64,000 nucleotides of DNA, taken from NCBI GenBank assembly GCA_965223545.1, contig OZ245006.1, forward strand, positions 6,208,001-6,272,000, read 5' to 3'. The DNA comes from Planctomycetota bacterium (GTDB taxonomy: Bacteria > Planctomycetota > UBA1135 > UBA2386). Positions 2,294-18,607 of the stretch are shown here, in pieces; within the stretch, counting starts at the first letter, position 1; every line of letters begins with the position of its first letter. Both the position numbers and the translations under genes were made by a program. The notes under the pieces are model-generated. The model had not been told where the DNA came from. It ran no database searches and saw only the letters and a list, made by a program, of their open reading frames with translations.

Positions 2294-2471
2294 GGCGGTC
2301 TCGGTCGGAGGTGTCTCCAGCTATCGTAAGAGTTGGGCACCCGCCGTCGAGGCGCGGTCTCGGTCGCGCGCTCGCCTCCCTGCCACGGGATCGTGGAGCA
2401 GCCAAGCGCGGGGTGGATCGCGCGGTGGCCGGTGGGTAAACCGGCGAGGACTGCAGCTACGAGGTCGCCGC

Positions 2472-2906
2472 ATGCTGGTGAAGAGCGCCCTGGTGCGCAA
2501 ACCCCTGACCGTCGGTCCCGACACGTCGTTGACCGAGTTCATCGATGCCGTGCTCGACTCCAACCAAACCACCGCCGCCGTCATCGAGGGGGAGCGGCTG
2601 GTCGGCATGGTGTCGGCGATGGACGTGTTCCGGCGCATCGTGCCGCCGTATCTCGAGCGCGACACGCACCTGCTGACCGCGGTGCGCGACAGCTACTTCG
2701 ACGAGAAGTTCGAGAAGTTTCGCCACGTCGCGGTGCGTGAGATCATGGTCAGCGCCCCCGATGTCCTGGCGCCGGAGGAGTCGGTGGCGCGTGCGGTGGC
2801 CCTGTTCGTCCACAAGGGCCGCAAGTCGCTCGCCGTCGTCGACGACGGGCGTTACGTCGGCACCATCACGCGGCGCAGCATCCTGCGCACTCTGCGGCGG
2901 CGTTGA
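2472..2906 (+). CDS. CBS-domain pair protein
   Basis: From ATG 2472 (MLVKSALVRKPLTVGPD); two CBS repeats (LVGMVSAMDV, YVGTITRRSIL); 6 nt upstream of the transporter gene. Confidence 0.85.
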   Translation: MLVKSALVRKPLTVGPDTSLTEFIDAVLDSNQTTAAVIEGERLVGMVSAMDVFRRIVPPYLERDTHLLTAVRDSYFDEKFEKFRHVAVREIMVSAPDVLAPEESVARAVALFVHKGRKSLAVVDDGRYVGTITRRSILRTLRRR

Positions 2907-2912
2907 TTCGCG

Positions 2913-4259
2913 ATGCTGGGTTCGGCGGACTACTACTGGCTGACGGCCGCGATCTTCGTCCTGGCCTTCGTCGCGATCCTCTCCGAGCGCATCCACAAGA
3001 CCAAGGTGGCGCTGTTCGGCGGCGCGTTGATGGTGGCTCTGCCGATCCTCAGCCAGGACGAGGCGTTCTACTCGGAGCGCTACGGCATCGACTACAACGT
3101 CGTGTTCCTGCTGATCTCGATGATGATCATCGTCAAGATCGTCAGTCTGAGCGGCATCTTCGAGTGGGCGGCAATCCGCGCCGCCAAGTTGGCCGGCGGC
3201 CGTCCGCTCAACATCCTGGTGATCTTCGTCCTGCTCACCGCGGTCGCCTCGGCGTTTCTGGACAATGTCACCACGGTCCTGTTCATCGCGCCGATCACCC
3301 TGCTGATCGCCGATGAGCTCGACGTCGACCCGATTCCGTTTCTGCTGGCCGAGGCGTTGGCGTCGAACATCGGCGGCACCGCGACGCTGATCGGCGACCC
3401 GCCCAACATCATCATCGCCTCGCGCGCCGGTCTGTCGTTCATGGACTTCCTGGTGCACGTCGCGCCCGCCGTGCTGGTGATGATGGCCGCGTTCGTGGTC
3501 GCCATCGTGTTGCTGTTCGGAGGGCGATTGACCGTCGAGGAGAGCAAGCGCCAGCGCATCCTGGCGATGGACGAGCGCACCGTGATCAAGGACGCCTCGT
3601 TGGCGCGGCGCTCATTGGTCGTGCTGGCGCTGACGATCGCCGGCTTCGCGCTGCACGGGGTGCTGCACTACGAGCCGGCGACGATCGCGCTGATGGGGGC
3701 CGGCGCCCTTCTGCTGATCAGCCGGCGCGATCCGCACGAGATCCTGGCCGATGTCGAGTGGCCGACCATCTTCTTCTTCATCGGCTTGTTCTTGATGGTC
3801 GGTGGCGTCGCCAAGGTGGGGTTGATCGAGGACGTCTCGCAGCTGGTGATGGAGGTCACCAAGCCGACGCCCGAGGACACCTACGGCACGAGCATGGTGA
3901 TCTTGTGGTTCTCGGCGGTCGCTTCCGCCGTGGTCGACAACATTCCGTACGTCGCCACGATGGCGCCGCTCGTCGTCGACATGGCCAACAACGTGTTTCA
4001 CAACGGCGAGCTCGAGCAGGTGCCGGCCGAAACCTTGTTGAGCGCGCCGATGCAACCGGTGTGGTGGGCGTTGTCGCTGGGCTCGTGTCTGGGCGGCAAC
4101 GGCACGCCGATCGGTGCCTCGGCAAACGTGATCGTGCTCGGCATCGCGGAGAAGTCCGGGATCATGATCAGCTTCTTGCGCTTCGTGGCCTACGGCGTGC
4201 CCACCGTGCTGGTGACTCTGGCGATCAGCCACGTCTACCTCACGCTGCGCTACTTCTGA
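2913..4259 (+). CDS. ArsB/NhaD (ion transporter superfamily) permease
   Basis: Highly hydrophobic; motifs SAFLDNVTT, SNIGGTATLIGDPPNIII, SAVVDNIP, LGGNGTPIGASANV. Confidence 0.92.
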   Translation: MLGSADYYWLTAAIFVLAFVAILSERIHKTKVALFGGALMVALPILSQDEAFYSERYGIDYNVVFLLISMMIIVKIVSLSGIFEWAAIRAAKLAGGRPLNILVIFVLLTAVASAFLDNVTTVLFIAPITLLIADELDVDPIPFLLAEALASNIGGTATLIGDPPNIIIASRAGLSFMDFLVHVAPAVLVMMAAFVVAIVLLFGGRLTVEESKRQRILAMDERTVIKDASLARRSLVVLALTIAGFALHGVLHYEPATIALMGAGALLLISRRDPHEILADVEWPTIFFFIGLFLMVGGVAKVGLIEDVSQLVMEVTKPTPEDTYGTSMVILWFSAVASAVVDNIPYVATMAPLVVDMANNVFHNGELEQVPAETLLSAPMQPVWWALSLGSCLGGNGTPIGASANVIVLGIAEKSGIMISFLRFVAYGVPTVLVTLAISHVYLTLRYF

Positions 4260-4295: not shown

Positions 4296-7280
4296 TCAGC
4301 GCCGGTGGTGGTTGTGCGCGGTCTCGACGCTCAGGTCGTTGCCGTCGCCGTGGCAGATGGCGCAGCTCTCCAGCCCCAGCGCGCTGTTGGCGGCCATGTG
4401 CGCCAAAGCCGTGCGGCCGTCGTGGCAGGAGCCACACACCATTCGCCATTCGAGATGGGGCGCGGTGCTGGCCTCGTCCGGGTGCAGCCGCAGTGTTGGC
4501 GCGTGCCAGGCAGTGTTTCCGGTGCCGTGGCAGGCCTCGCAATTGGCGGTGCCGCCCTTGAACGACGGGAAGCCCACGTGCTCGTAGCTGTGCGGGTTGC
4601 CGCGAAAGCCGATCACTTGATAGTTGGCGCCGGCCGCCAGATCCAAGCCGTGGTGGATCTTGTGGATCATGCCGCGGAACTCGATGGTGACGCCAGGCGT
4701 CGGCAGGCTGCTCAGGCCACTGGTCTTGTAGATCGGCCAGTCCTCGGCGCCGGCGACCCCGTGGCACAATGTGCAGTTGTCGTAGCCGCGGCGATGGGCG
4801 CCGTGGAACTGCAGGTCGCGGTGGCAGGCGTAGCATGAAGCCGCGCTCTCGATGCGGGTATTGGCTTCCAACGGGCCGCTGCTGCCCAGCCGGAACGCCG
4901 CCACCGTGTTGCCTTCGGCCCCCTCGGTGTACGACGTGATCTGGCTGTTGCCGCCACCGCTGACGGTGACGTCGAAGCTGACTTCGCCGTAGATGCCGAG
5001 GCGGTAGGTGCCGTCGACCAGGTCCATTCCGGTCCATTCGCCGATCGTCGCGTCCAGCGCCGGGGCGTTGGGGTCGGTTGACGGGCTGTTGTTGATCGCA
5101 CCGCGGTAGCGCTGCGGAACGGCGAAGTCGGTCGTGTAGGTCACCAGCACGCGGCCGCTCGGCGCTGCGCCGAAGGTGATCGTGCCGGTCGCCTCATCCA
5201 GGGTGAACCCGGTCTCGGCGGTGGCGGTCACGGCGACGACTTCGACGCTCGCACTGGCCAGGTGCTGGTTTCTCGGAACGCTGCCGACCACGTCGATCGG
5301 CGCGGCGAACCACAGCCGATCGTCCTGCACGGCCAGCACCTCGACGTACTCTCGGGACGCGGTGGCTTCGTCGATGACGATGATGTCGCCGGCGGCAAAG
5401 CCCGAGCCATCGGTCACGTCCAGATAGTTCTGGTGGGGCGCGACGTCGGCCGTCAAGAAGACTCCCGAGCTCACGCCGGTCGGCACTGTCCAGACCAGGG
5501 TCTGGCCATGTGTGCCGAAGCGCGTGTCGTAGTGCGGCGTGCGCGCGGTGTTGAACACCGTCGCGGAGACTGGCGTCGCCTCCTCCAGCGGGACCCTCTC
5601 GGGCAGGATGAAGGTGTGGCTGCTGCCGGCGCCGGTCAGGATCGATGTCGGCGACGGCGCGCGGGACGGGTTGCTGTTGAAGCCGGTGAAGTAGAGCGAG
5701 TTGGGATTCTCCACCGGTCCCGTGGCGATGATCTCGACGCGCTCCAGCGCGGCGGGGTCGACCCGCGCGCCCTGGCCGTCGACCAGGTCGACCGCGACCT
5801 CGATCCCCTCGCCGACCTCGATCAAACCGTCGCCGTCACCGTTGACCTCGTTGATCGCGGTGACGTTGAACTGCAGCCCGCGGGCGCCGGCGCCGGCACC
5901 CCACAACGGGGTGGGGCTGGTGTCCAGCAGCGGGTGGGTGTGCGCCTTGCGCACGTTGATCGCGGCGTTCGGGTTGGTCGGCGCCTCGCCGTGGCACGCC
6001 GTGCAGGTGGTGTCGTCCAGCGACGCCGGCATCGTGCGGCCGTTCGCGGTGTAGGGTTTGCTCGGGTCCCAGTCGTCGTGGCAGGCGATGCAGGCCCGGG
6101 TCACGATCGTGTTGCTGAAGATCGCGTCGCCGTCGGCGGGAGGCTGTTGCGGGCCGGTGCCGTCCGGGTCGCCGTGGCAGGCGGCGCAGTTGGTCGGGCC
6201 GCCCAGGATCGCGTCCTCGATGTCCTGCTCGTTGCCCGCCAGGGCGTCGTAGCCGACGTCGCGCGGCATGCCTTGCGACAGGTGCGGCCACTGCGGGAAC
6301 GCGACGTGGGAGAAGTCGAACTCGCCGCGCGAACGCACGATGACGTACGGAGTCGGGCTCCCGTACACCGGGTCGCCGGCGCCGTCCACCGACTTTCCGT
6401 TGACGCTCGGCAGGTGCCGGCCGGAGTGGATCTTGTGGATCATCGTCTGGAACGAGATGCTCAAGCCCAGGGTCTCGCCGGCCACCGCGTTGGGGTCGTT
6501 GAGGTCTTCGGCGCCGTTGGTGTGACACAACACGCACATCGCGACGCCGTAGCGGTTGTCGCCGTGCGCGCGCAGCGTCGTGTGGCAGCTCTGGCAGTTG
6601 GCATCGGTCACCAGCTCGGGATGGTCGATCTGCGTCGCGCTGCCGAACAAGACATCGATGGTCGTCGACGTGGCATCGCGGAAGGTGGTCCCCTCGATCT
6701 CGATGTTCTGCCGCATCGATATGCCGATCGTGTAGGTGCCGTCGGGCAGCGGCTGGCCGGCCAGGGTGCCGGAGTCGTAGGGGATGGTGTTGGCCTGGTT
6801 GATCTGGTCCGGCACCGTCACCGGGATCGGGTCGGGCCAGGTGAACGTCCAGCTGCCATCCGCGTTCTGCGTGGCGTTGTCGGCGATGTCGCGCGTGCTC
6901 AGCATGAGCTGGTAGTTGTTGGCCGGGCCGGCGAACAGCGCTTCCTGGAACGCCCAGTTGGCGGACGGAATCGGATCGCCCGGCGGGTTGCTGCCCTGCG
7001 CGCCCTCGGTCGCGGTGAAGGTGACCGCGATGCGATCGCCCGCGCGGAAGTTGCCGTTGGGCCCGGAGCCGCCGTCGACGTCGACGATCTGCAGGTTGAA
7101 GCCGGGCAGTGCACTGCTACGGGTCAGCGTGGGGGTGTTGCCGCCGGGGGGGCCGGGCGGACCCTGAGCGCCGTCGTCCCCGCTGCACGCTACGCCGAGC
7201 AGTGTCAGAGCCAAGATGGCGCTGGTCCGGCGGTGCGCGTTCACCGGGGGCGGGAAGGCGGAAGTACGGATCGGTGACAT
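4296..7280 (-). CDS. OmcA/MtrC-like decaheme c-type cytochrome lipoprotein (copy 1)
   Basis: Start ATG 7280; lipobox LLGVAC then GAQGPPGPPG; 10 CxxCH motifs in two groups of five; MIHKIH motif in each heme domain. Confidence 0.88.
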   Translation of the reverse strand: MSPIRTSAFPPPVNAHRRTSAILALTLLGVACSGDDGAQGPPGPPGGNTPTLTRSSALPGFNLQIVDVDGGSGPNGNFRAGDRIAVTFTATEGAQGSNPPGDPIPSANWAFQEALFAGPANNYQLMLSTRDIADNATQNADGSWTFTWPDPIPVTVPDQINQANTIPYDSGTLAGQPLPDGTYTIGISMRQNIEIEGTTFRDATSTTIDVLFGSATQIDHPELVTDANCQSCHTTLRAHGDNRYGVAMCVLCHTNGAEDLNDPNAVAGETLGLSISFQTMIHKIHSGRHLPSVNGKSVDGAGDPVYGSPTPYVIVRSRGEFDFSHVAFPQWPHLSQGMPRDVGYDALAGNEQDIEDAILGGPTNCAACHGDPDGTGPQQPPADGDAIFSNTIVTRACIACHDDWDPSKPYTANGRTMPASLDDTTCTACHGEAPTNPNAAINVRKAHTHPLLDTSPTPLWGAGAGARGLQFNVTAINEVNGDGDGLIEVGEGIEVAVDLVDGQGARVDPAALERVEIIATGPVENPNSLYFTGFNSNPSRAPSPTSILTGAGSSHTFILPERVPLEEATPVSATVFNTARTPHYDTRFGTHGQTLVWTVPTGVSSGVFLTADVAPHQNYLDVTDGSGFAAGDIIVIDEATASREYVEVLAVQDDRLWFAAPIDVVGSVPRNQHLASASVEVVAVTATAETGFTLDEATGTITFGAAPSGRVLVTYTTDFAVPQRYRGAINNSPSTDPNAPALDATIGEWTGMDLVDGTYRLGIYGEVSFDVTVSGGGNSQITSYTEGAEGNTVAAFRLGSSGPLEANTRIESAASCYACHRDLQFHGAHRRGYDNCTLCHGVAGAEDWPIYKTSGLSSLPTPGVTIEFRGMIHKIHHGLDLAAGANYQVIGFRGNPHSYEHVGFPSFKGGTANCEACHGTGNTAWHAPTLRLHPDEASTAPHLEWRMVCGSCHDGRTALAHMAANSALGLESCAICHGDGNDLSVETAHNHHRR

Positions 7281-7370
7281 CGTCGGCTCCGGGTTTCGGG
7301 GGATGAAGGCAGGAGACCTGCATCCTCGAGACGCGCGCGCCAACGTTGCAATTTCCGCCGAGCATCCGGC

Positions 7371-8453
7371 GTGGTGCAGATAGCCGTGCGCTGGAAACCT
7401 CTGTTGCTCTTGGTGGTGTTGGTCGCGATGGCCGGGCTCTTCTTCGGCGTCCGGCGAGCGGCCGATGCCGAGCCCGCCTCCGTTGCGCGCGGTTCGACCC
7501 CGCGCGCGATGCCGATACCGCGTGTGGCGGAGACGATCACGGTCCGCAGCCCGGTCGGCAGCGCGGGGGAGGTCGCCGGCGTCGCCAACCCGATGTCCGA
7601 CGCGGTCGCATCGGCCGGGTTCGGCACCGTGGTGCTGCACGTGCGGTCCACCGGCGAAGAGCCGGCACTTGTTGCGCAGTGGCGGCTCGTGGAGGCCGTT
7701 GCGGGCATGCCGCTGGGCGGTGAGCTCACCGGAGGATTCGCACAGCTCCGGGTCCCGCGCGGTCGCTCGGTGCAGGTCGTGCTCGTGGCCGCCGGTCATC
7801 AGCCGTCGCTACCGGTCGACGTCTCGCTCGCGATCGATGAGCGATCGCGCGCGCTGGTGGTTCCACTGGTTCCGCGTCGCGGTTCTGCCATCGTGCTGCG
7901 GGTCGCCGACCGGCACGGGCGCGCCGTACCCGCCATTCGCGTCCTCGCCGAGCGCCGCGTCGGCTGGCACCAGTGGCAGGCGCGGCCGCCGCGGATTCTG
8001 GCTGCGCACGCGGGATCGTTTTCAGTGCCCGTCCCCCAGGACGGGGCACATCGCTTGAAGGTCGTCGGCTTGGATGCTGCCCATCGCCCCTGGCCGGCTT
8101 TGGCGGTGACCGCCAGTCTTCGCGTGCCGGCCGACGCGGAGGACGCGCTCGACCTGCGGCTGCCGGCGGGCGGGACGGTCGAGCTGTGTGCCGCGGCCGC
8201 GTTGCCGGCGGGGACCACCGCCGAGATCTCCGCGCGCGACGGGCTCGTGCGCGGTCGGCGTTGGTTGCGGCTCGGCGGCGGCGATGCGGTGCCGTGCACC
8301 GTGCTCACCGGCCACCGGCGTTGGGTTTGCGAGCACCCATTCCCGCCCGGTGAGTACACCGTGTTCGTCCATTGGCCGAGCGACGGGCAGAGCTATCCGG
8401 TGCGGGTGCACGCCGACCGTCGCGTGAAAGTCCGGCTCGGACCCCGGAGTTGA
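7371..8453 (+). CDS. Membrane-anchored hypothetical protein with probable beta-sandwich (carboxypeptidase-regulatory-like) domains
   Basis: N-terminal hydrophobic helix LLLLVVLVAMAGLFFGV; beta-rich pattern such as VLRVADRHGRAVP; fills the gap between cytochrome genes. Confidence 0.6.
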   Translation: MVQIAVRWKPLLLLVVLVAMAGLFFGVRRAADAEPASVARGSTPRAMPIPRVAETITVRSPVGSAGEVAGVANPMSDAVASAGFGTVVLHVRSTGEEPALVAQWRLVEAVAGMPLGGELTGGFAQLRVPRGRSVQVVLVAAGHQPSLPVDVSLAIDERSRALVVPLVPRRGSAIVLRVADRHGRAVPAIRVLAERRVGWHQWQARPPRILAAHAGSFSVPVPQDGAHRLKVVGLDAAHRPWPALAVTASLRVPADAEDALDLRLPAGGTVELCAAAALPAGTTAEISARDGLVRGRRWLRLGGGDAVPCTVLTGHRRWVCEHPFPPGEYTVFVHWPSDGQSYPVRVHADRRVKVRLGPRS

Positions 8454-8498
8454 GTTCTCCCGTGAGCTGCCGACTGGGCGCTGCACGAAGAGCCAGCC

Positions 8499-9917
8499 AT
8501 GAGCCATGAACCGAGGACCGCACCCACCGGCGGCACGCTGGACCGGATCCATCGGCTGATCCGCTCGAACTGGCTGTCGTCGAGCGGGGCCGCGATCGCC
8601 ACGCTGGGGTTGCTCGGCACGGTGACCGGGCTTTCGCTGCACGCCGCCGGTGCTTGGAGTGGCCCCTACGTCGGCATTCTGACGGTGATCGTCCTGCCGG
8701 CGCTGTTCGTCTTCGGCCTGCTGCTCGTGCCGCTCGGCTTGCTGGTCTACCGGCGGCAGCTGCACGACCGCGTGCGGCGCCTCGCCGACCGGCCGATGTA
8801 CCTGGCGCGCGCAGTGGCCGCGCTGACCATCGTCAACTTCGCAGGGGTCGCCACCGTCGGCTACACCGGCGTCAGCTACATGAGCTCGACGCAGTTCTGC
8901 GGCACCGCCTGCCACCAGGCGATGGAGCCGGAGTACCTGGCCTATCAGCACTCACCCCACGCCAACGTCGGCTGTGTCGCGTGCCACGTCGGCGAGGGTG
9001 CCCAGGCGTTCGTCGAGTCCAAGCTCAACGGCGTCAGCCAGCTGATCGGCTACTTGACCGACGACTACAGCCGGCCGATCCCAACGCCGGTGCACAACCT
9101 GCGGCCGGCGGACGAGACCTGCGAGAATTGCCATTGGCCGGAGAAATACCTCGGCACCAAGCTGATGGTGCGGCCGCACTACCGCGAGGACGAGGCGGTC
9201 TCCGCCTACGTCAACGTGCTGTTGATGCGCACCGGCGGGACGCGCGCCGATGGCGCGTCGACCGGTATCCACTGGCATGCCCATCCGGACGTGACGGTCG
9301 AGTACGTCGCCACCGATCCGCACCGCGAGAAGATCCCGTGGGTGAGGGTGCGCGACCGCGACGGCAGCGAGCGCGTGTTCACCGAAGAAGGCGTCGACCC
9401 AAGCACACCGCCACCCGGTGCGCTGCGGCGGATGGACTGCACCGACTGCCACAACCGTGCCGCGCACGCCTTCGAGCGCCCCGAGGACGCGGTCGACGCC
9501 GCGATCGCGGCCGGCATGATCGACCGCAGGCTTCCCTTCGTGCGCAAGCACGCCGTCGAGGTCCTGCGCATGGGGCACACCCGCGAGGGCGCGGCGGCCG
9601 CGATCCGCCGCGCCATGCACGCGGCGTACAACGCCGATGGCGTGCTCGATGCCGACACCCGGCCGGCGCTGGAACCGGCGATCGAGGCCTTGATCGAGAT
9701 CTGGCAGCGCAACGTCTACCCCGATCGCAAGCTGTTCTGGGACTCGTATCCCGACCTCAGCGCCCACTACGGCTGCATGCGCTGCCATGAAGGCAATCAC
9801 CGCGACGCCGCGGGCGCGGTGATCCCGTCCAAGTGCAACGTCTGCCACGTCGTCTTGAGCGACGAGGAGGAGGACCCCGCGATCTTGAATGCGTTGGGGT
9901 TGCAGTTGCCGCGGTGA
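8499..9917 (+). CDS. NapC/NirT-family membrane-anchored multiheme cytochrome c (probable quinol dehydrogenase)
   Basis: Three N-terminal TM helices; YMSSTQFCGTACHQAM and SPHANVGCVACH NapC-type region; 5 CxxCH plus 1 CxxxCH. Confidence 0.88.
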   Translation: MSHEPRTAPTGGTLDRIHRLIRSNWLSSSGAAIATLGLLGTVTGLSLHAAGAWSGPYVGILTVIVLPALFVFGLLLVPLGLLVYRRQLHDRVRRLADRPMYLARAVAALTIVNFAGVATVGYTGVSYMSSTQFCGTACHQAMEPEYLAYQHSPHANVGCVACHVGEGAQAFVESKLNGVSQLIGYLTDDYSRPIPTPVHNLRPADETCENCHWPEKYLGTKLMVRPHYREDEAVSAYVNVLLMRTGGTRADGASTGIHWHAHPDVTVEYVATDPHREKIPWVRVRDRDGSERVFTEEGVDPSTPPPGALRRMDCTDCHNRAAHAFERPEDAVDAAIAAGMIDRRLPFVRKHAVEVLRMGHTREGAAAAIRRAMHAAYNADGVLDADTRPALEPAIEALIEIWQRNVYPDRKLFWDSYPDLSAHYGCMRCHEGNHRDAAGAVIPSKCNVCHVVLSDEEEDPAILNALGLQLPR

Positions 9918-11668
9918 GGGTGAAGCGGCAGTTCTGGCGGCACTCCTGGCTCGCCGCTGTCGTCGCGGTGACGGCACCGGTGCCGGCACAGGACCCCCGC
10001 CCCCCGCGGCGGCCGCCGCCACTGGACGAAACCGAGGCGGCGGCGCGCGCGTTGGAGAAGCTGCTCGGCAAGGGTGTGCAGCGAGTGGACGAGAGCAATC
10101 GCGCCGAGCTGCTACCGCAGGGGCCGCCGCCGCGGGCAGTGACCGAAGCGCAGGGTGTGGGTCCGCCGGGTGTCGGTGGACCGCCGCCGTACGGGCCGCC
10201 GGCCGCGGGGCCGCGGGGAGCCCCGCCGCAGGACCCCCGCGCCCCGCCGCGCGCCGAGCCGCTGCGCGAGCCCGAGGCCGCTGCCGAGGCCTTGCGTCAG
10301 TTGTTGCCGCAGGCACAGCCTGTGACCGAGCGGCCGACCGAGCCGCTTCGCCCGACGGGCGATCCTCCGCCCGGTCCGGCGATACCGCCGCCGTTGCCGC
10401 CGCGCGAGGTCCCCGCCGGCGCCGCGGCCGCTCCCGCTCCGCCGGCGCTGGGTGTGCGCGGCACTCTGTCGCTGCGCTACCTCGGGCGCTGGGCCGATGA
10501 CCGCGACCAAGACCTGCGCGGCGTGTTGGCGTTCGACGTGGGTGAGGCCGACGCGCACCCGCTGACGTTCCACTTCGTGGGCCGCGGCCAGCTCGATCTC
10601 GACGGCCGCCAGCAGGCGAACGGGTTCAACGGTCTCGAGGAGTCCTTTGGCCGGGCGCAGACCGGTCGGATCTACGACGCCTATCTCGACGTGCACGCGG
10701 TCGAGGGCCTGGGCATCGCGCGCCTGGGGCGGCAGTCGATCTACGATACTCCCGAGCTCGCGTTCTTCGACGGCGTGCGAGTGCAGAGTGAGGAGCTCGG
10801 CACGCTCCGCGCCTGGGTCGGTGGCTACGGCGGCGTCCCGGTGCACCTGTTCGAGGCGTCGGCGCGCGGCGATTGGCTCGGCGGCGTCTGCGCGGGCGCT
10901 CGCCCATGGCGCGGCGGGCGTGTGCGGCTCGACGGCATGTACGCCCGGGACCGGACCACTGGGGGAACGCTCGACGACGATCTGTGGGCGGTGTCGGTGT
11001 GGCAGTCGATGTCCGACGCAGTGTCTTTGCACGGCAGTCACTCGTGGCTCGGCGGGGCGGCCCGAGACCTGCGCTTGACGCTGGACGCGGCCGCGTCCGA
11101 GGGGCTCGACGTGCGCGCCCGATACTTCGAGCTGTTGCGCACGCAACACTGGCGTGCCCTCGAGTTCGACCCGTTCTCCAGCGCGACGATCGCCTACCGG
11201 CCCTACCGGCAGCTCGACCTGTCGGTGGCGCAGGCGCTGGGCGAGGTCGCCGAGGTCGCGGTCGGTTACGACCTGCGGCGGCTGGCGGATCGCAGCGCGG
11301 AGGCGGCGTTCAACCGTGAGTTCGACCGCGCCTACGCGACGTTGGCGATCGACGGAGTGGGCGGGATGGACTTCGGTGGCGACGTCACCGCCGAGCATTG
11401 GGACAGCTCGGGCGAGGACGTGTTCGCCATCGACGCTTCGGTGCGCGCCGCGTTGTCGGCGCAGTGGCGTGCGACGGTGGGGACCGCGTACTGGCACTAC
11501 AAGATGGACCACCTGCGCGGTCGCGAGCAGGAACGCGTCCGCGCGTACTTCTTGCGCTTCGACGGCCGCCTTGGCGATCGCTTGCGCTTCGACTTGGACT
11601 ACTCCTACGAGGATGGCGAGTTCGACCGCTACCACTCGCTGCGAGGAGGCTTGACATGGCAGTTCTGA
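9914..11668 (+). CDS. Outer-membrane beta-barrel (putative cytochrome-associated porin) with Pro-rich N-terminal region
   Basis: GTG start overlaps upstream TGA; signal peptide ending VPA-Q; Pro-rich stretch; amphipathic beta strands; C-terminal GGLTWQF beta-signal. Confidence 0.8.
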   Translation: MRVKRQFWRHSWLAAVVAVTAPVPAQDPRPPRRPPPLDETEAAARALEKLLGKGVQRVDESNRAELLPQGPPPRAVTEAQGVGPPGVGGPPPYGPPAAGPRGAPPQDPRAPPRAEPLREPEAAAEALRQLLPQAQPVTERPTEPLRPTGDPPPGPAIPPPLPPREVPAGAAAAPAPPALGVRGTLSLRYLGRWADDRDQDLRGVLAFDVGEADAHPLTFHFVGRGQLDLDGRQQANGFNGLEESFGRAQTGRIYDAYLDVHAVEGLGIARLGRQSIYDTPELAFFDGVRVQSEELGTLRAWVGGYGGVPVHLFEASARGDWLGGVCAGARPWRGGRVRLDGMYARDRTTGGTLDDDLWAVSVWQSMSDAVSLHGSHSWLGGAARDLRLTLDAAASEGLDVRARYFELLRTQHWRALEFDPFSSATIAYRPYRQLDLSVAQALGEVAEVAVGYDLRRLADRSAEAAFNREFDRAYATLAIDGVGGMDFGGDVTAEHWDSSGEDVFAIDASVRAALSAQWRATVGTAYWHYKMDHLRGREQERVRAYFLRFDGRLGDRLRFDLDYSYEDGEFDRYHSLRGGLTWQF

Positions 11669-12666
11669 AGCGTCGCGGGGCGCGCTGGTGGCTTGTTCTC
11701 GGGCTCCTGGTCGGCACCGCCGCGTGTTTCGTCGCCGGGTGGCGCGGACGGGAAGAGCCGCGGTTCTCCCACGCGGTGCACGGCGAGGACCAGGGCCTGA
11801 CCTGTGTGCAGTGCCATTCCGGCGCGCGCTTGGCCGCGGGCGCCGGAATGCCGGGGCCGCAGCTGTGCCAACCCTGCCACGAGCGCTTCGATGCGGACAA
11901 GCCGCCGGATCGCCGCCTGGCGGCGTACTTCGACGCCAGCGGCCGGTTTCTTCGCACGCCCCGGTCGCCGCTGTCGGTCGAGGTGGCGTTCTCGCACGCG
12001 GCGCACGCGCTGCGGGATGTCGGCTGCCGCGACTGCCACGCGGACCTGGACGGCGGCGCCGCGGTGCCGCCGACTCCGGCGGCGCGCAAGGATCAGTGCA
12101 TGCAGTGCCACCAGCGTGCCGGCAGGAGCAACGAGTGCGCCGAGTGCCACCGCGAGGTCGACCGCGACTGGGTGCCCGCGACGCATTCGCTGCAGTGGGA
12201 GCACCGGCACGGCGACTGGCTGCGCGCCGATCCGGGTGGATTGGCCGCGCGGTGCGACCTCTGCCACCAGCAGTCCAGCTGTCAGACGTGCCACCGCGAG
12301 CAGCTGCCCCGCGACCACACGCACCATTGGCGGCGGCGTGGTCACGGCTTGGCGGCGTCGATCGACCGCAGTCGCTGCAGTACCTGCCACCGCTCGGACG
12401 CGTGCGATCGCTGCCACGAGTCGACGCGGCCGATGAGCCACGGCGGCACCTTCGGCGCGCCGCGCAGCAGACACTGCACTTCGTGCCATCTGCCGGTCTC
12501 CGCCACCGGCTGCTTCACCTGCCACAAGCACACGCCGAGCCACACGCTGGCGGCGCCGTTGCCGCCCGGCCACTCGCCGGCAATGAACTGCCGCCAGTGC
12601 CATGGCGCCGGTGCGTCGATGCCACACCCCGACGGAGGTCACGCATGCACGGCCTGCCATCGATGA
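11656..12666 (+). CDS. 13-heme c-type cytochrome (c3/c7-like N-terminal part)
   Basis: ATG 11656 preceded by GAGGAGG; N-terminal hydrophobic helix; FSHAVH and FSHAAH motifs; 13 CxxCH counted in 336 aa. Confidence 0.9.
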   Translation: MAVLKRRGARWWLVLGLLVGTAACFVAGWRGREEPRFSHAVHGEDQGLTCVQCHSGARLAAGAGMPGPQLCQPCHERFDADKPPDRRLAAYFDASGRFLRTPRSPLSVEVAFSHAAHALRDVGCRDCHADLDGGAAVPPTPAARKDQCMQCHQRAGRSNECAECHREVDRDWVPATHSLQWEHRHGDWLRADPGGLAARCDLCHQQSSCQTCHREQLPRDHTHHWRRRGHGLAASIDRSRCSTCHRSDACDRCHESTRPMSHGGTFGAPRSRHCTSCHLPVSATGCFTCHKHTPSHTLAAPLPPGHSPAMNCRQCHGAGASMPHPDGGHACTACHR

Positions 12667-15464
12667 AACTACAGCTCGCGACCATCGTCTTGGCCGGATG
12701 TGGCCTCGGTTGTGATGGCGACCGCGGTCCACCGGGCGTGTCCGGTCCGAGCGGAAGCCCGCGTCCGCAGGGGCTGGTCGTGCGCATCGATCGGCTGGGC
12801 GGCGCGACCGGAGGCGACGGCTCGTTCCGCGTCGGCGATCGCGTGGTCGTCGAGTTCACCGTCACCGATGGCAATGGCCAGCCACTGTCGATGGCGGACT
12901 TGGCGCACGGCGCGGCGATGCTCTCGGGCCCGACCTTCAACTACCAGCGCGTGCTGGGGCGCAGCGGCGACGTTCGCGCGACGGCGACGGCACTGGGGGC
13001 GGGCGCGTTCCGCTATCGCTTTGCGGCTGGAATTCCCGCCACCTACCTGCCGCCCCTCAACGACAGTGCGCGGTTCACCATCGGGGAGTTGCGCGGCCAG
13101 CCGCTGTTGGCCGGCACCTACACCGTGGGACTCGTGCTGGCGCGCGACGAGGACGACGGAGGGCAAGTCGTCCGCACGGCGATCAACGCGACCGCGGACC
13201 TGCGCTTCGGCGGCGCCGCGGCGATCGAGCCGCGCGACGTGGCCTCCGCTGCCAGCTGCCGCCAATGCCACGGCAGCCTGCGCGCGCACGGCGAGAGCCA
13301 CGCTTCGCTGACGAGCTGTCTGTTGTGCCACACGGCCGGTGCCGAGGACCACGCCGACCCGGCCATCGCCGGCGGCACCCCCGACGTCACCATCGACCTC
13401 GACGTACTGATCCACAAGATCCACGCCGGGCGGCATCTGCCGTCAGTGGCGGGCGTCGGCACCGCGGCCGACGGCAGTCGCACCTACGGGCCGGGGCGGC
13501 CCTATCGCGTGGTCGGTGCGGGCGGCGTCGTGCACGACTATTCGGCGATCGGCAATCCCGTCTGGCCGGCCGCCGCAGCACCGATGCCGCGCGATGTCGG
13601 TTGGGCATCGCTGGGCGCCGCCGAGCGCGCGGCAGAGGACGCCGTCCGCAGCGGGCCGGTGGATTGCGCGGCGTGCCACGGCGACCCGGACGGCGCGGGG
13701 CCCGCGCCGGCGCCACGCCAGGCGGCGTTGATCTACGCCCAGCCTTCGCGCATGGCGTGTGGCTCCTGCCACGACGACTGGGCGTTCGACGCACCCTACA
13801 CCGCGAACCGGCAGACGATGCCACCGCAAACCGACGACGCGACGTGTATCCAGTGCCACAAGCCAGCCGGGGGACCGCTCGACGTCGCCGACGCGCACCG
13901 CCACCCGCTGTCGGACCCCGCGGTCGTGGCCGGCGTTCGCTTGGAGTTGACCGCGGCGCGGCCGGCGGGAGCACACAATGGCGACGCGAGCCTCGACCTC
14001 GGCGAGGGCATCGAGATCGAGTTCCACCTGCGCGACGCGAACGGGCGCGATCTGGATCCGGCCTTGCTGGACGACATGGACGTGGTGCTGACGGGTCCGT
14101 CCCACAACCCGAACCTGGTGCTGGCCTCGGAGATCCCGATCGCCGCCTTGACGTCGGGCTCCGCGCAACGCATCCAGGTGCCCGAACGGATCGCGCTCGA
14201 GCGCGTTGGACAGGCGACCGCGACGCCAGGGGAGACCTTCGTCACCGCTCGTAGCCCCCATTGGCACGTGGTGGGTGGCGAGACGAGGGTCTGGGCGACC
14301 CGCGCGCTCGGCCCGGCCTCCGCGTTGGCGGGGCCGGCGCCGGTGGGGCAGAACTACGTCGACCTCGTCGCCGGGGGCGGTGCGGCGTTCGGGCGGGACG
14401 ACTGGGTCGTCTTGGATGCCGGTACGGTTGCCGCCGAATACCGCATCGTGCAGTGGGTCGATGGCGACCGGCTTTGGTTCTCGTCGCCGGCGACCCCGCA
14501 GTACCCCGCGGCGCTCCAGGTGGCGCACGCGCCGTCGGCGCCGATCGCCGTCGCATCGGTCACCTTGTTGCAGGCCGGGGTCGACTACTCGTTGGATCCA
14601 AGCAGGGGAGCGATCACCGAGCTCCGTGAGTTCGGCGCCGGGAGCGACGTGTTGGCGTCGTACACCACGGACTTCGTCATGCCGCCGGCATACGGGCCGA
14701 CGTGGCATGACTCGCCGGCGTTCGGCGAGAGCGCCGGTGAGTGGTCGGGCAAGCCGATCGTCGCGGGCACGTACGGGTTGGCGTTGTCGGCTTCCCGCGG
14801 CGTCACCGTCGATGTGCTGGGCGAGGCCTCGCCGTACACCGACGCGGCGCCGGCTGCCGTGGTCGATCTGCCGGTCGGCGGGGTCGGTCCGCTGCTGCCC
14901 CGCGCCGTGCTGGAGTCGGTGCAGGTGTGCGGGCGCTGCCACGGCGAGGTGACCGGCCACGGCGGCGCGCGGCGGGGGGTGGCCGGCTGCATCACCTGCC
15001 ACGCGGCCGGCGGTGCCGAGGACCTCGCGCGCTACGTCGCCGCCAATGCTCCGGCCAATCAGGTCACCGTCGATTTCCGCGCGCTGATGCACCGCGTGCA
15101 CGCCGGCGCCGGCCTGCAGGGCAGCCCCGGCCCCGTGGTCGGCGCCGGAAGTGCTCCCTACCCCGACAACTTCACCCTGCGCAGCTTCGCCGGTGTCGTC
15201 TTCCCTTGGCATGCCGGCGTCGCCGACTGCCGCGTGTGCCACGGCGATGCGCCGGCCTGGCAGGTGCCGTTGGGCCGTGACCATCCCACCGCGCAGGGGA
15301 CGGCGGTGGGGGCTTGGCGCGTCGTCTGTGCCTCGTGCCACGATGGGCGGGCCGCCACCGGGCACATCGCCGCCAACACAGCGGTCACCACCGGAGTCGA
15401 GACCTGTGCCCAGTGCCACGGTCCCGGCCGCGTCCACGCCGTCGAGGCCGTGCACCGGCGGTAA
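12663..15464 (+). CDS. OmcA/MtrC-like decaheme c-type cytochrome lipoprotein (copy 2)
   Basis: ATGA overlap with upstream gene; MKLQLATIVLAGCGLGC lipoprotein signal; 10 CxxCH; collinear with copy 1 (HKIHAGRHLPSV, CAACHGDPDG, QNYVD, DRLWF). Confidence 0.88.
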   Translation: MKLQLATIVLAGCGLGCDGDRGPPGVSGPSGSPRPQGLVVRIDRLGGATGGDGSFRVGDRVVVEFTVTDGNGQPLSMADLAHGAAMLSGPTFNYQRVLGRSGDVRATATALGAGAFRYRFAAGIPATYLPPLNDSARFTIGELRGQPLLAGTYTVGLVLARDEDDGGQVVRTAINATADLRFGGAAAIEPRDVASAASCRQCHGSLRAHGESHASLTSCLLCHTAGAEDHADPAIAGGTPDVTIDLDVLIHKIHAGRHLPSVAGVGTAADGSRTYGPGRPYRVVGAGGVVHDYSAIGNPVWPAAAAPMPRDVGWASLGAAERAAEDAVRSGPVDCAACHGDPDGAGPAPAPRQAALIYAQPSRMACGSCHDDWAFDAPYTANRQTMPPQTDDATCIQCHKPAGGPLDVADAHRHPLSDPAVVAGVRLELTAARPAGAHNGDASLDLGEGIEIEFHLRDANGRDLDPALLDDMDVVLTGPSHNPNLVLASEIPIAALTSGSAQRIQVPERIALERVGQATATPGETFVTARSPHWHVVGGETRVWATRALGPASALAGPAPVGQNYVDLVAGGGAAFGRDDWVVLDAGTVAAEYRIVQWVDGDRLWFSSPATPQYPAALQVAHAPSAPIAVASVTLLQAGVDYSLDPSRGAITELREFGAGSDVLASYTTDFVMPPAYGPTWHDSPAFGESAGEWSGKPIVAGTYGLALSASRGVTVDVLGEASPYTDAAPAAVVDLPVGGVGPLLPRAVLESVQVCGRCHGEVTGHGGARRGVAGCITCHAAGGAEDLARYVAANAPANQVTVDFRALMHRVHAGAGLQGSPGPVVGAGSAPYPDNFTLRSFAGVVFPWHAGVADCRVCHGDAPAWQVPLGRDHPTAQGTAVGAWRVVCASCHDGRAATGHIAANTAVTTGVETCAQCHGPGRVHAVEAVHRR

Positions 15465-17458: not shown

Positions 17459-18607
17459 ATGAACAGATACGTCCTCCCGGCGGCGTTGGCACTCGCCATC
17501 GCGCCACCCCTGCTCGCGCAGGACGAGGCGGCTGCCAAGCTGAAAGCGATGCAGGCGTCGTTCGACGCGGCCGTCGCCGCCTACTCCAAGGCGGCGCGCG
17601 AGCTGGCGCAGACGGAAGCCTACAAGCAGGCAGTTGCCGAGCGCGATCGCGACAAGATCACCGAGTTGCGCGCATCCATCGATCCGATCGACTTCGACGG
17701 CTTCATCGAGAAGTTCCAGGCGGCCGCCACCGAGCACGCCGGCACCGACGATGCGGTCGGCTTTCTGGTGTGGATCACCAAGAACGGTGGTCGGAGCAAC
17801 CCGGAAGCCGCCGTCGCCGCGACCAAGACCCTGCTCGCCGATCACGGCGAGAACGAGCAGCTGATCCAGCTGGTCGAGAACCCGTACATGCTTGCTTCGG
17901 TGGCGCGCGACGACGCGGCCGCGCTGTTGACGCAGCTCGCCGACGCCACGCCGCACGACACCGTGCTCGCGCACGCGCTCTACGCGCGCGCCACGCTCGC
18001 CCAGCGCGACCGCAACGCGAGCGAAGAAGACCAGCAGCGCGCCGCGACCGACTTGGTCCGCGCCCGCGAGCTGGCCGAGGGCACGTTGCTGGCAGACCGC
18101 ATCGATGCGCCGGAGTTCGAGGCCAACAACCTGCAGATCGGCATGGAGGCGCCGGACATCGTCGGTCACGACATCGACGGCGTGCCGTTCAAGCTGTCCG
18201 ACTACCGCGGCAAGGTCGTGGTGCTCGACTTCTGGGGCGATTGGTGAGGCCCTTGCCGGGCCATGTACCCCCACGAGCGGTCGCTCGTGAAGCGTTTGAA
18301 GAACAAGCCGTTCGCGTTGATCGGCGTCAACAGTGACAAGGACAAGGCCGTGCTCAAGGAGCGCATCCGCGAGGAGAACATCACCTGGCGCAGCTTCTGG
18401 AACGGCCCACTCGGCACCAGCGGACCGATCTCCACCAAGTGGAACGTCCGTGGTTGGCCGACCATCTACATCATCGATGAGAAGGGTGTCATCCGCTACA
18501 AGAACAAGCGTGGCCGTGCCATGGACGAGGCGGTCAACGAGCTTCTGGTGGCGATGGACGTCGACCTTGGCGAGCACCTCTACAGCGAAGAGGACGCCGG
18601 CAACTGA
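17459..18607 (+). CDS. Exported TlpA/redoxin-family disulfide reductase, putative selenoprotein (in-frame TGA 18245-18247, U-G-P-C)
   Basis: ORFs 17459-18247 and 18263-18607 are in frame; read-through gives KVVVLDFWGDW-U-GPCRAMYPHE, with TGA at the first Cys position of CxxC; cis-Pro motif WPTIY follows. Confidence 0.88.
18248..18289 (+). promoter_or_regulatory. Candidate SECIS element
   Basis: GGCCC-TTGCC-GGGCC hairpin then CACGAGC-GGTC-GCTCGTG hairpin; GGTC loop begins 31 nt after TGA. Confidence 0.7.

Follow-up and report, generated by a model that had tools for sequence, protein, structure and literature searches.

An operon joining an anammox-type porin-cytochrome pair to predicted ImcH- and MtrC-type cytochromes in a planctomycete genome

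Among the described porin-cytochrome (Pcc) systems, those of anammox bacteria lie closest to the locus considered here. Shi et al. (2014, PMC4245776) characterize the Kuenenia type by a porin of 18-22 strands located directly beside a cytochrome with 5-14 hemes; in the two-gene Pcc of Candidatus Kuenenia this cytochrome has 338-344 amino acids (aa) and 12-14 hemes and is called periplasmic, and the pair is set as distant from other Pcc. The genes kuste4024 and kuste4025 are adjacent in Candidatus Kuenenia stuttgartiensis, and an ortholog is reported to be expressed by Candidatus Brocadia on an electrode (Shaw et al., 10.1101/855817). On the quinol side of such systems, Zhong and Shi (PMC6295460) class as ImcH homologs the proteins with three helices at the N-terminus, a neighbouring CX3CH motif and 5-9 CX2CH motifs, and describe CymA as a one-helix tetraheme cytochrome of ~187 aa. 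ImcH is needed for extracellular electron transfer (EET) to acceptors above -100 mV (PMC6295460; PMC13591261; 10.1101/2023.05.03.539133). Within the Planctomycetota, PCC have been reported in one genome and iron-reduction potential in four (Suarez et al., PMC10732223). The locus described here lies in a stretch of 64 kb (the window) from the genome of an uncultured planctomycete, designated G000, and appears to place homologs of the anammox porin and cytochrome in one operon with ImcH-type and MtrC-type genes. Its genes, with their positions in the window, are as follows.

A: 4296-7280, minus strand; 994 aa, 10 CXXCH; predicted MtrC/OmcA-like decaheme lipoprotein, divergent from the operon
B: 7371-8453, plus strand; 360 aa; unannotated open reading frame (ORF) between A and C
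C: 8499-9917, plus strand; 472 aa, 5 CXXCH and 1 CX3CH; predicted ImcH-type inner-membrane hexaheme cytochrome
D: 9914-11668, plus strand; 584 aa, zero heme motifs; predicted outer-membrane beta-barrel
E: 11656-12666, plus strand; 336 aa, 13 CXXCH; predicted lipoprotein
F: 12663-15464, plus strand; 933 aa, 10 CXXCH; predicted MtrC/OmcA-like decaheme lipoprotein

Genes C to F overlap, C and D through GTGA, D and E by 13 bases, and E and F through ATGA, and third-codon-position GC is 0.87-0.92 across A, C, D, E and F. The locus contains 39 heme motifs, 38 CXXCH and the CX3CH of C. A six-frame scan of the whole window found 39 CXXCH, 38 of them within the four cytochrome genes and only one in the remaining ~53 kb outside the locus, a clustering that is not due to chance. 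Coordinates, overlaps and counts thus agree with a preliminary description of this DNA, which had noted four overlapping genes, a divergent second decaheme lipoprotein and 39 motifs; it names neither B nor the lipobox of E. We consider it probable, at roughly 60%, that the products of C to F together form a respiratory wire that leads outward, from menaquinol to extracellular acceptors. This reading draws on gene content, motifs, a barrel model, family assignments, the conservation of D with E, and the recurrence of that pair with ImcH and MtrC-type genes.

By sequence comparison, D and E are full-length homologs of the anammox porin and its 13-14-heme partner. E is 30% identical over its full length to a 14-heme anammox protein of 338 aa (locus L169; E value 5e-50), and D is 24.5% identical over 433 residues to the anammox porin (E value 7e-26). 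With 22 strands, 13 hemes and adjacent genes, the pair fits the published two-gene Pcc. In 9/9 loci examined from the anammox family (f40), an E homolog with 13 or 14 hemes comes after the D homolog, and 5/5 genomes of that family have one full-length E homolog each; six anammox E homologs carry a lipobox, as E does. Among 15 porin-bearing f40 genomes, neither MtrC-type genes (0/15) nor ImcH (0/15) were found at strict thresholds. Hydrazine dehydrogenase scored over the cut-off in 4/4 f40 genomes tested; none did so in G000, whose host by that test does not belong to the anammox bacteria. The pair seen in the anammox genomes presumably represents the Kuenenia genes kuste4024/4025, since L169 fits the published account (adjacent genes, 338 aa, 14 hemes), a match made by description. 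The porin and 13-heme cytochrome, seen in the preliminary description as an unknown parts list, therefore have full-length homologs in anammox genomes and match the described Kuenenia Pcc. The pair is already in print; its predicted operon with ImcH- and MtrC-type genes is what appears to be new, and no description of an ImcH-Pcc-MtrC operon was found in the literature, with subscription papers outside the coverage. The PCC3 and PCC4 types defined by He et al. (PMC5566968) do not apply: the cluster lacks a five-helix inner-membrane protein with two HX13H motifs, its membrane proteins being C (three helices) and B (one).

D has a signal-like N-terminus, a Pro/Ala-rich linker to about residue 177, a 22-strand barrel encoded by 10445-11665 and the C-terminal residues TWQF. 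An AlphaFold2 model of residues 178-584 (predicted local distance difference test, pLDDT, 88.4) forms 22 strands with the long loops on one side. The product of 9914-11668 is therefore modelled as a barrel, as the preliminary description supposed; a cytochrome may lie inside it. Structurally it comes closest to large barrels of the outer membrane (Z 19.0, root-mean-square deviation (rmsd) 4.3, 355 residues aligned), which are of the plugged kind; MtrB appears at rank 28 (Z 14.5, rmsd 7.3). The last residue is Phe in 139/150 D homologs. The N-terminal extension of these homologs is variable (median 74 aa, <=60 in 49/129) and Pro/Ala-rich when long, so that a conserved plug is absent. The family is large, with 936 clusters at 50% identity, and no Pfam or NCBIfam family matched D, nor did its porin profile match any PDB sequence. 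MtrB/PioB was rejected as an identity for D, which gave no match; TIGR03509 matched just 1/29 homologs (E value 0.026), and a search of G000 with PF11854 matched only another gene (E value 0.26). ESM Atlas look-alikes occur in clusters from Nitrospirota, Hydrogenedentota, Verrucomicrobiota and Myxococcota and serve as leads only.

E consists of an ActA-like pentaheme N-domain (residues 34-166) and four two-heme repeats. Both in sequence (E value 7e-27) and in structure (Z 10.8, rmsd 2.9 over 131 residues), the N-domain resembles ActA from alternative complex III; the repeat half, where the model is of low confidence, gave no structural match. In addition to 13 CXXCH motifs, E has 13 conserved His outside the motifs (H306 in 24/30 homologs by alignment column, H324 in 29/30), so that the count fits a bis-His wire without an open catalytic site. 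The lipobox of E is TAAC, with the cysteine at C24, and 27/30 aligned homologs, as well as 98/106 of a wider set, match a loose lipobox pattern ahead of the first heme; 2 of the 8 misses in the wider set are mis-anchored windows. This conservation makes E a probable lipoprotein instead of a carrier free in the periplasm or the plain periplasmic cytochrome first described. E was also compared with MtrA/DmsE and rejected as a member (16.1 bits against a cut-off of 192.2; 13 hemes). Three E homologs with extra two-heme repeats were seen, all directly behind the porin gene, with 23 hemes (L185:10180-12225), 17 hemes (L180:9210-12182) and 15 hemes (L181:8042-11077). A plasmid search with E returned partial ActA-like matches only.

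C appears to be an ImcH-type member of the NapC/NirT superfamily and is predicted to be a menaquinol oxidase. It scores 29.2 bits against PF03264 (NapC/NirT; cut-off 24.1). Alignment-averaged hydropathy places membrane helices at residues 29-47, 59-77 and 102-120 (1.87, 2.73 and 1.91); helix 1 of C taken alone reaches 1.46, below the 1.6 threshold. The CX3CH motif (C134/C138/H139) adjoins this membrane domain and, with K175 and Q181, is invariant in 20/20 aligned homologs, while Y190 is present in 17/20. The residues around heme 1 of Geobacter ImcH are H137, K173, Q179, Y188 and E127 (10.1101/2023.05.03.539133); the first four correspond to H139/K175/Q181/Y190 of C at a constant offset of +2, matched by residue number and spacing rather than by alignment. 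The assignment as ImcH-type rests on the combination of three helices, CX3CH, five CXXCH and these four pocket residues. CymA is ruled out by the length of 472 aa, the three helices and the six motifs. Of the preliminary label, a NapC/NirT-type cytochrome with 6 heme motifs, the superfamily and the count stand; the quinol-side protein is of the ImcH type, not the CymA type. FNR- and CRP-like boxes were found upstream of ImcH genes in 0/29 and 1/29 regions, respectively, against backgrounds of ~6% and ~5%, and so give no hint of oxygen control.

A and F are predicted, from family matches, heme arrangement and lipobox, to be MtrC/OmcA-like lipoproteins with two pentaheme domains, II and IV. They are 37% identical, and the hemes of each are arranged 5+5, the MtrC/OmcA architecture. 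The lipobox of A is GVAC, with the cysteine at C32; the lipobox cysteine of F is C13 or C17. PF22113 (cut-off 30) matches two stretches in each protein, with 131 bits for A and 136.8 for F. TIGR03507 (cut-off 209.3) gives 207.5 and 208.8 bits, and is matched by 20/20 members of the decaheme family (best E value 6e-77). In a search of the PDB the family profile matched MtrF (E value 2e-27), OmcA (9e-16), UndA (4e-12) and also MtrC, so that all significant matches are surface cytochromes. Domain III is enlarged, to ~350 residues in A and F (356 in F). In domain III of F (window 14175-14730, plus strand) and its counterpart in A, matches to phage tail proteins occur below the cut-off (DUF2460/TIGR02217 in A, NF052337 in F); a PHROGs scan of the decaheme family for a phage-tail link gave 0/20. 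Together, the family searches and the barrel model support the view, already put forward in the preliminary description, of a porin-cytochrome conduit with MtrC-like terminals, a porin other than MtrB and a cytochrome other than MtrA in a planctomycete.

Conservation was followed in three samples. D was matched in 31 of 60 relatives, and 31 loci from 30 of these were compared (G024 was left out, its match being split over two contigs). A second set was selected through E by one short pattern, which biases it to close kin: 129 pattern matches, of which 101 were confirmed and the best 80 kept. These 80 loci overlap the 31-locus set and the counts are not additive. Finally, 401 Planctomycetota genomes were searched with the porin profile at an E value of 1e-3, a few of the matches being weak; MtrC-type and ImcH counts in this sample used strict thresholds with few candidates scored per genome, and related genomes are not independent samples. 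In the first set, D and E lie side by side in 31/31 loci; an MtrC-type gene is present in 19/31 and ImcH in 13/31. All 80 E-selected loci come from records titled Planctomycetota or bare "bacterium"; D is found in 78, an MtrC-type gene in 67 and ImcH in 32. The order ImcH-D-E-MtrC occurs in 17/80, and also at L195, from another family of the phylum. Two separate decahemes are present in four of the 80 loci, and one split decaheme gene in four more. Across the phylum sample, D was found in 86/401 genomes (G000 included; 15 belong to f40), compared with 32/38 genomes having an MtrC-type gene; it is also present in 16/21 ImcH genomes, and all three genes occur in 7 genomes. The terminal partners of the pair differ between families and are 8-, 9-, 10- or 11-heme proteins, or none. 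The near-constant adjacency of D and E, against the variable presence of ImcH and MtrC-type genes, marks D-E as a fixed core with swappable input and output modules. Distances of D and E correlate (r 0.82, to which shared ancestry contributes). Trees of 57 D-E pairs (unrooted, midpoint) disagree on the attachment point of the anammox clade, and no order of events is therefore claimed.

If the outward wire exists, C would oxidise menaquinol at heme 1 and release protons to the periplasm, as its family relationship to Geobacter ImcH suggests. Next, the ActA-like N-domain of E might receive the electrons, either straight from C or by way of a soluble carrier whose gene lies outside the locus; this is the weakest step. 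Anchored to a membrane through its lipid, E would plug barrel D, with the slim two-heme repeats spanning the outer membrane, and F, placed at the surface by analogy with its family, would reduce Fe(III), Mn(IV), humic quinones or an electrode. Beside F, A would be an accessory terminal with an OmcA-like role. The threading of the barrel, the surface exposure of the decahemes and the direction of flow are what we infer in this scheme. A bolder version, which we regard as doubtful, makes E a lipid-anchored wire with an ActA domain and extendable repeats, docking with ImcH at one end and reaching through the barrel to the MtrC-type terminal at the other; the four proteins would then bridge the planctomycete envelope without a shuttle, and a phylum-wide conduit would be reduced to its core in the anammox pair. 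The variation in heme number among E homologs (13, 15, 17, 23) is what would be expected if repeat number sets the span.

Several observations weigh against the outward wire. The position of ImcH E127, in helix 3, is occupied by S129 in C, with D or E in 10/20 homologs, and for E the repeat half is poorly modelled (mean pLDDT 68.5, predicted template modelling score, pTM, 0.47). ImcH is optional, being found in 16/71 non-anammox porin-bearing genomes at an E value of 1e-60, and 6/38 MtrC-type genomes (L189-L194) are without D, having the decaheme alone, several of them at contig ends. Neither A nor F has a CX8C pair, or any free Cys beyond the lipobox region, and a Cys pair near the CX8C site occurs in only 2/78 decaheme homologs; in aerobic Shewanella the CX8C disulfide in domain III protects from peroxide (PMC9973256), and G000 has four heme-copper-oxidase-family genes beside its decahemes without CX8C. 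G000 also has secretins, a point in favour of the wire, but the best of them scores 265.5, below the GspD cut-off of 351.35. Two further clusters of multiheme and barrel genes in G000 might supply partners for A or F. Finally, the preliminary description saw the whole path in one locus, which goes too far: the locus has no small periplasmic carrier, while small tetraheme cytochromes are encoded beside D-E in 36/80 related loci. They belong to two families (28 and 14 loci among L046-L125), which are candidates for the periplasmic carrier, and both are without a full-length counterpart in G000.

Alternative explanations take up some of these points. The same conduit could run inward, with Fe(II), Mn(II), reduced humics or partner cells as donors and the quinone pool or oxygen respiration at the receiving end. 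CymA and other NapC/NirT proteins work both ways (PMC6295460), and one of the four heme-copper-oxidase-family genes of G000 has an ActA-like neighbour ~10 kb away. We nevertheless think inward flow unlikely: ImcH has been implicated in quinol oxidation only (PMC6295460; PMC13591261; 10.1101/2023.05.03.539133), mtrC tends to be missing from the Mtr clusters of Fe(II) oxidisers (PMC4245776) whereas this locus has two MtrC-type genes, and RuBisCO was not found in the 91%-complete G000. ImcH, together with menaquinone synthesis (classical MenB 412 bits in G000, cut-off 342.7; the futalosine menaquinone family was not found there), favours outward flow. The preliminary description held that direction is not readable from sequence; certainty is indeed lacking, yet ImcH leans outward. 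A different doubt concerns the barrel. E could be an OmcB-like surface lipoprotein, and D, instead of forming a sheath, a scaffold or export channel that serves lipoprotein cytochromes, with the outer membrane crossed by another pair in the genome. The lipobox of E is conserved, unlike in the Pcc cytochromes that Shi et al. (PMC4245776) place in the periplasm, D also resembles usher and AlgE export barrels structurally, and G000 encodes an 18-heme DmsE-family protein beside another barrel. However, D travels solely with E, even in the anammox genomes in which neither MtrC-type nor ImcH genes were found, the distances of the two are correlated as noted above, with the same reservation about ancestry, and many D homologs have neither the plug nor the accessory domains seen in export barrels, so that we rate this explanation as quite unlikely.

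It is a more distant prospect, and in our judgement an improbable one, that an outward conduit serves redox balancing, metal solubilisation or transfer to partner cells instead of growth by mineral respiration. The host encodes aerobic respiration, the terminal partners of D-E differ greatly from one family to another, and ImcH is described as electroneutral, mainly recycling quinone (10.1101/2023.05.03.539133). On the other hand, five genes with 39 hemes, two terminals and a dedicated quinol oxidase resemble the respiratory clusters of metal reducers (PMC6295460; PMC4245776). That the decahemes are periplasmic enzymes or electron stores, and D an unrelated solute porin, would suit the scores of A and F just under the TIGR03507 cut-off and their much enlarged domain III; the exclusively surface-type PDB matches and the near-invariant linkage of D with E make it very improbable. 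Of these readings we consider the outward respiratory wire the best.

The remaining gene of the locus, B, encodes one N-terminal hydrophobic segment, and its start position is uncertain. It has zero Pfam or NCBIfam matches and is matched in only 3/60 relatives (E values 8e-7 to 4e-4); from this distribution B would not be a conserved conduit part. Its best homolog, at L014:1-3472, adjoins a decaheme 66% identical to A in that one other genome, and A and B may travel as a module. A CBS-like ORF and a CitMHS/ArsB-type transporter gene (window 2444-4259, plus strand) converge on the end of A, a neighbourhood that was seen at none of the related loci examined. Beyond the operon, at window 17459-18607 (plus strand), two in-frame ORFs split by TGA form a single redoxin with WUGPC if TGA is read as U; the product is likely a selenoprotein. 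Promoter and terminator scans gave chance levels only.

Of the two other clusters in G000, one (G000:C1:201560-205608, minus strand; L045:6561-10609) comprises an 18-heme gene of the DmsE/MtrA family, which exceeds the cut-off with 255.6 bits, followed by the gene of a barrel-like protein of 808 aa that carries three CXXCH close to the N-terminus and shows only a faint MtrB/PioB match. This pair is a candidate for a second, MtrAB-like conduit. The other (G000:C1:4761144-4770273, minus strand; L044:9145-18274) is a co-directional series of a 560-aa unannotated ORF, a 23-heme gene, a 904-aa unannotated ORF, a 7-heme gene and an 11-heme ExtM-like gene, and is possibly a third conduit.

For anammox bacteria, the candidate conduit to minerals and electrodes rests on prediction from a gene pair. 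Finding the same pair in an operon with an ImcH-type oxidase and MtrC-type terminals supports the conduit reading of the anammox genes. If this reading is correct, the docking partners of MtrC-type terminals would be a barrel and a wire with no relationship to MtrAB, and about one fifth of the sampled Planctomycetota genomes would carry a conduit that neither Pfam nor NCBIfam names. The four genes form a compact unit that could be expressed in Shewanella or Geobacter mutants.

Compared with known systems, C is like Geobacter ImcH in its three membrane helices, the CX3CH beside them and the His/Lys/Gln/Tyr pocket of heme 1 at equal spacing, but has six hemes rather than seven and Ser in place of E127. 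Moreover, imcH genes are described without adjoining mtrAB or mtoAB (Zhong and Shi, PMC6295460), whereas C sits inside a porin-cytochrome operon. The CymA-MtrA-MtrB-MtrC/OmcA system of Shewanella follows the same quinol-to-surface logic, and A and F share the 5+5 heme architecture and the lipobox of its terminals. The locus differs in having no MtrA or MtrB family match, in ImcH replacing CymA, and in decahemes of 930-990 aa with a domain III of ~350 residues and no CX8C. MtrB has 26 strands in the solved complex. The barrel of D, with 22, is also smaller than the 28 strands predicted for MtrB (PMC4245776). The EET1-EET4 clusters of peat Acidobacteriota and Verrucomicrobiota, likened here by description, are divergent porin-cytochrome clusters too, and their MtrC-like and MtrA-like cytochromes carry 8-13 hemes; they belong to other phyla, and the main text of that report makes no mention of ImcH (10.64898/2026.05.27.727921). 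Geobacter OmbB-OmaB-OmcB and other Pcc, compared by description only, likewise combine a small-barrel porin, a multiheme partner and a surface lipoprotein cytochrome, but here the terminal is MtrC-type and the partner has 13 hemes and a lipobox. The closest likeness is to the Pcc of Kuenenia and Brocadia, with an adjacent porin and cytochrome in that order, 18-22 strands, 338-344 aa and 12-14 hemes; that pair stands alone in the porin-bearing f40 genomes examined, whereas D and E share their operon with ImcH- and MtrC-type genes.

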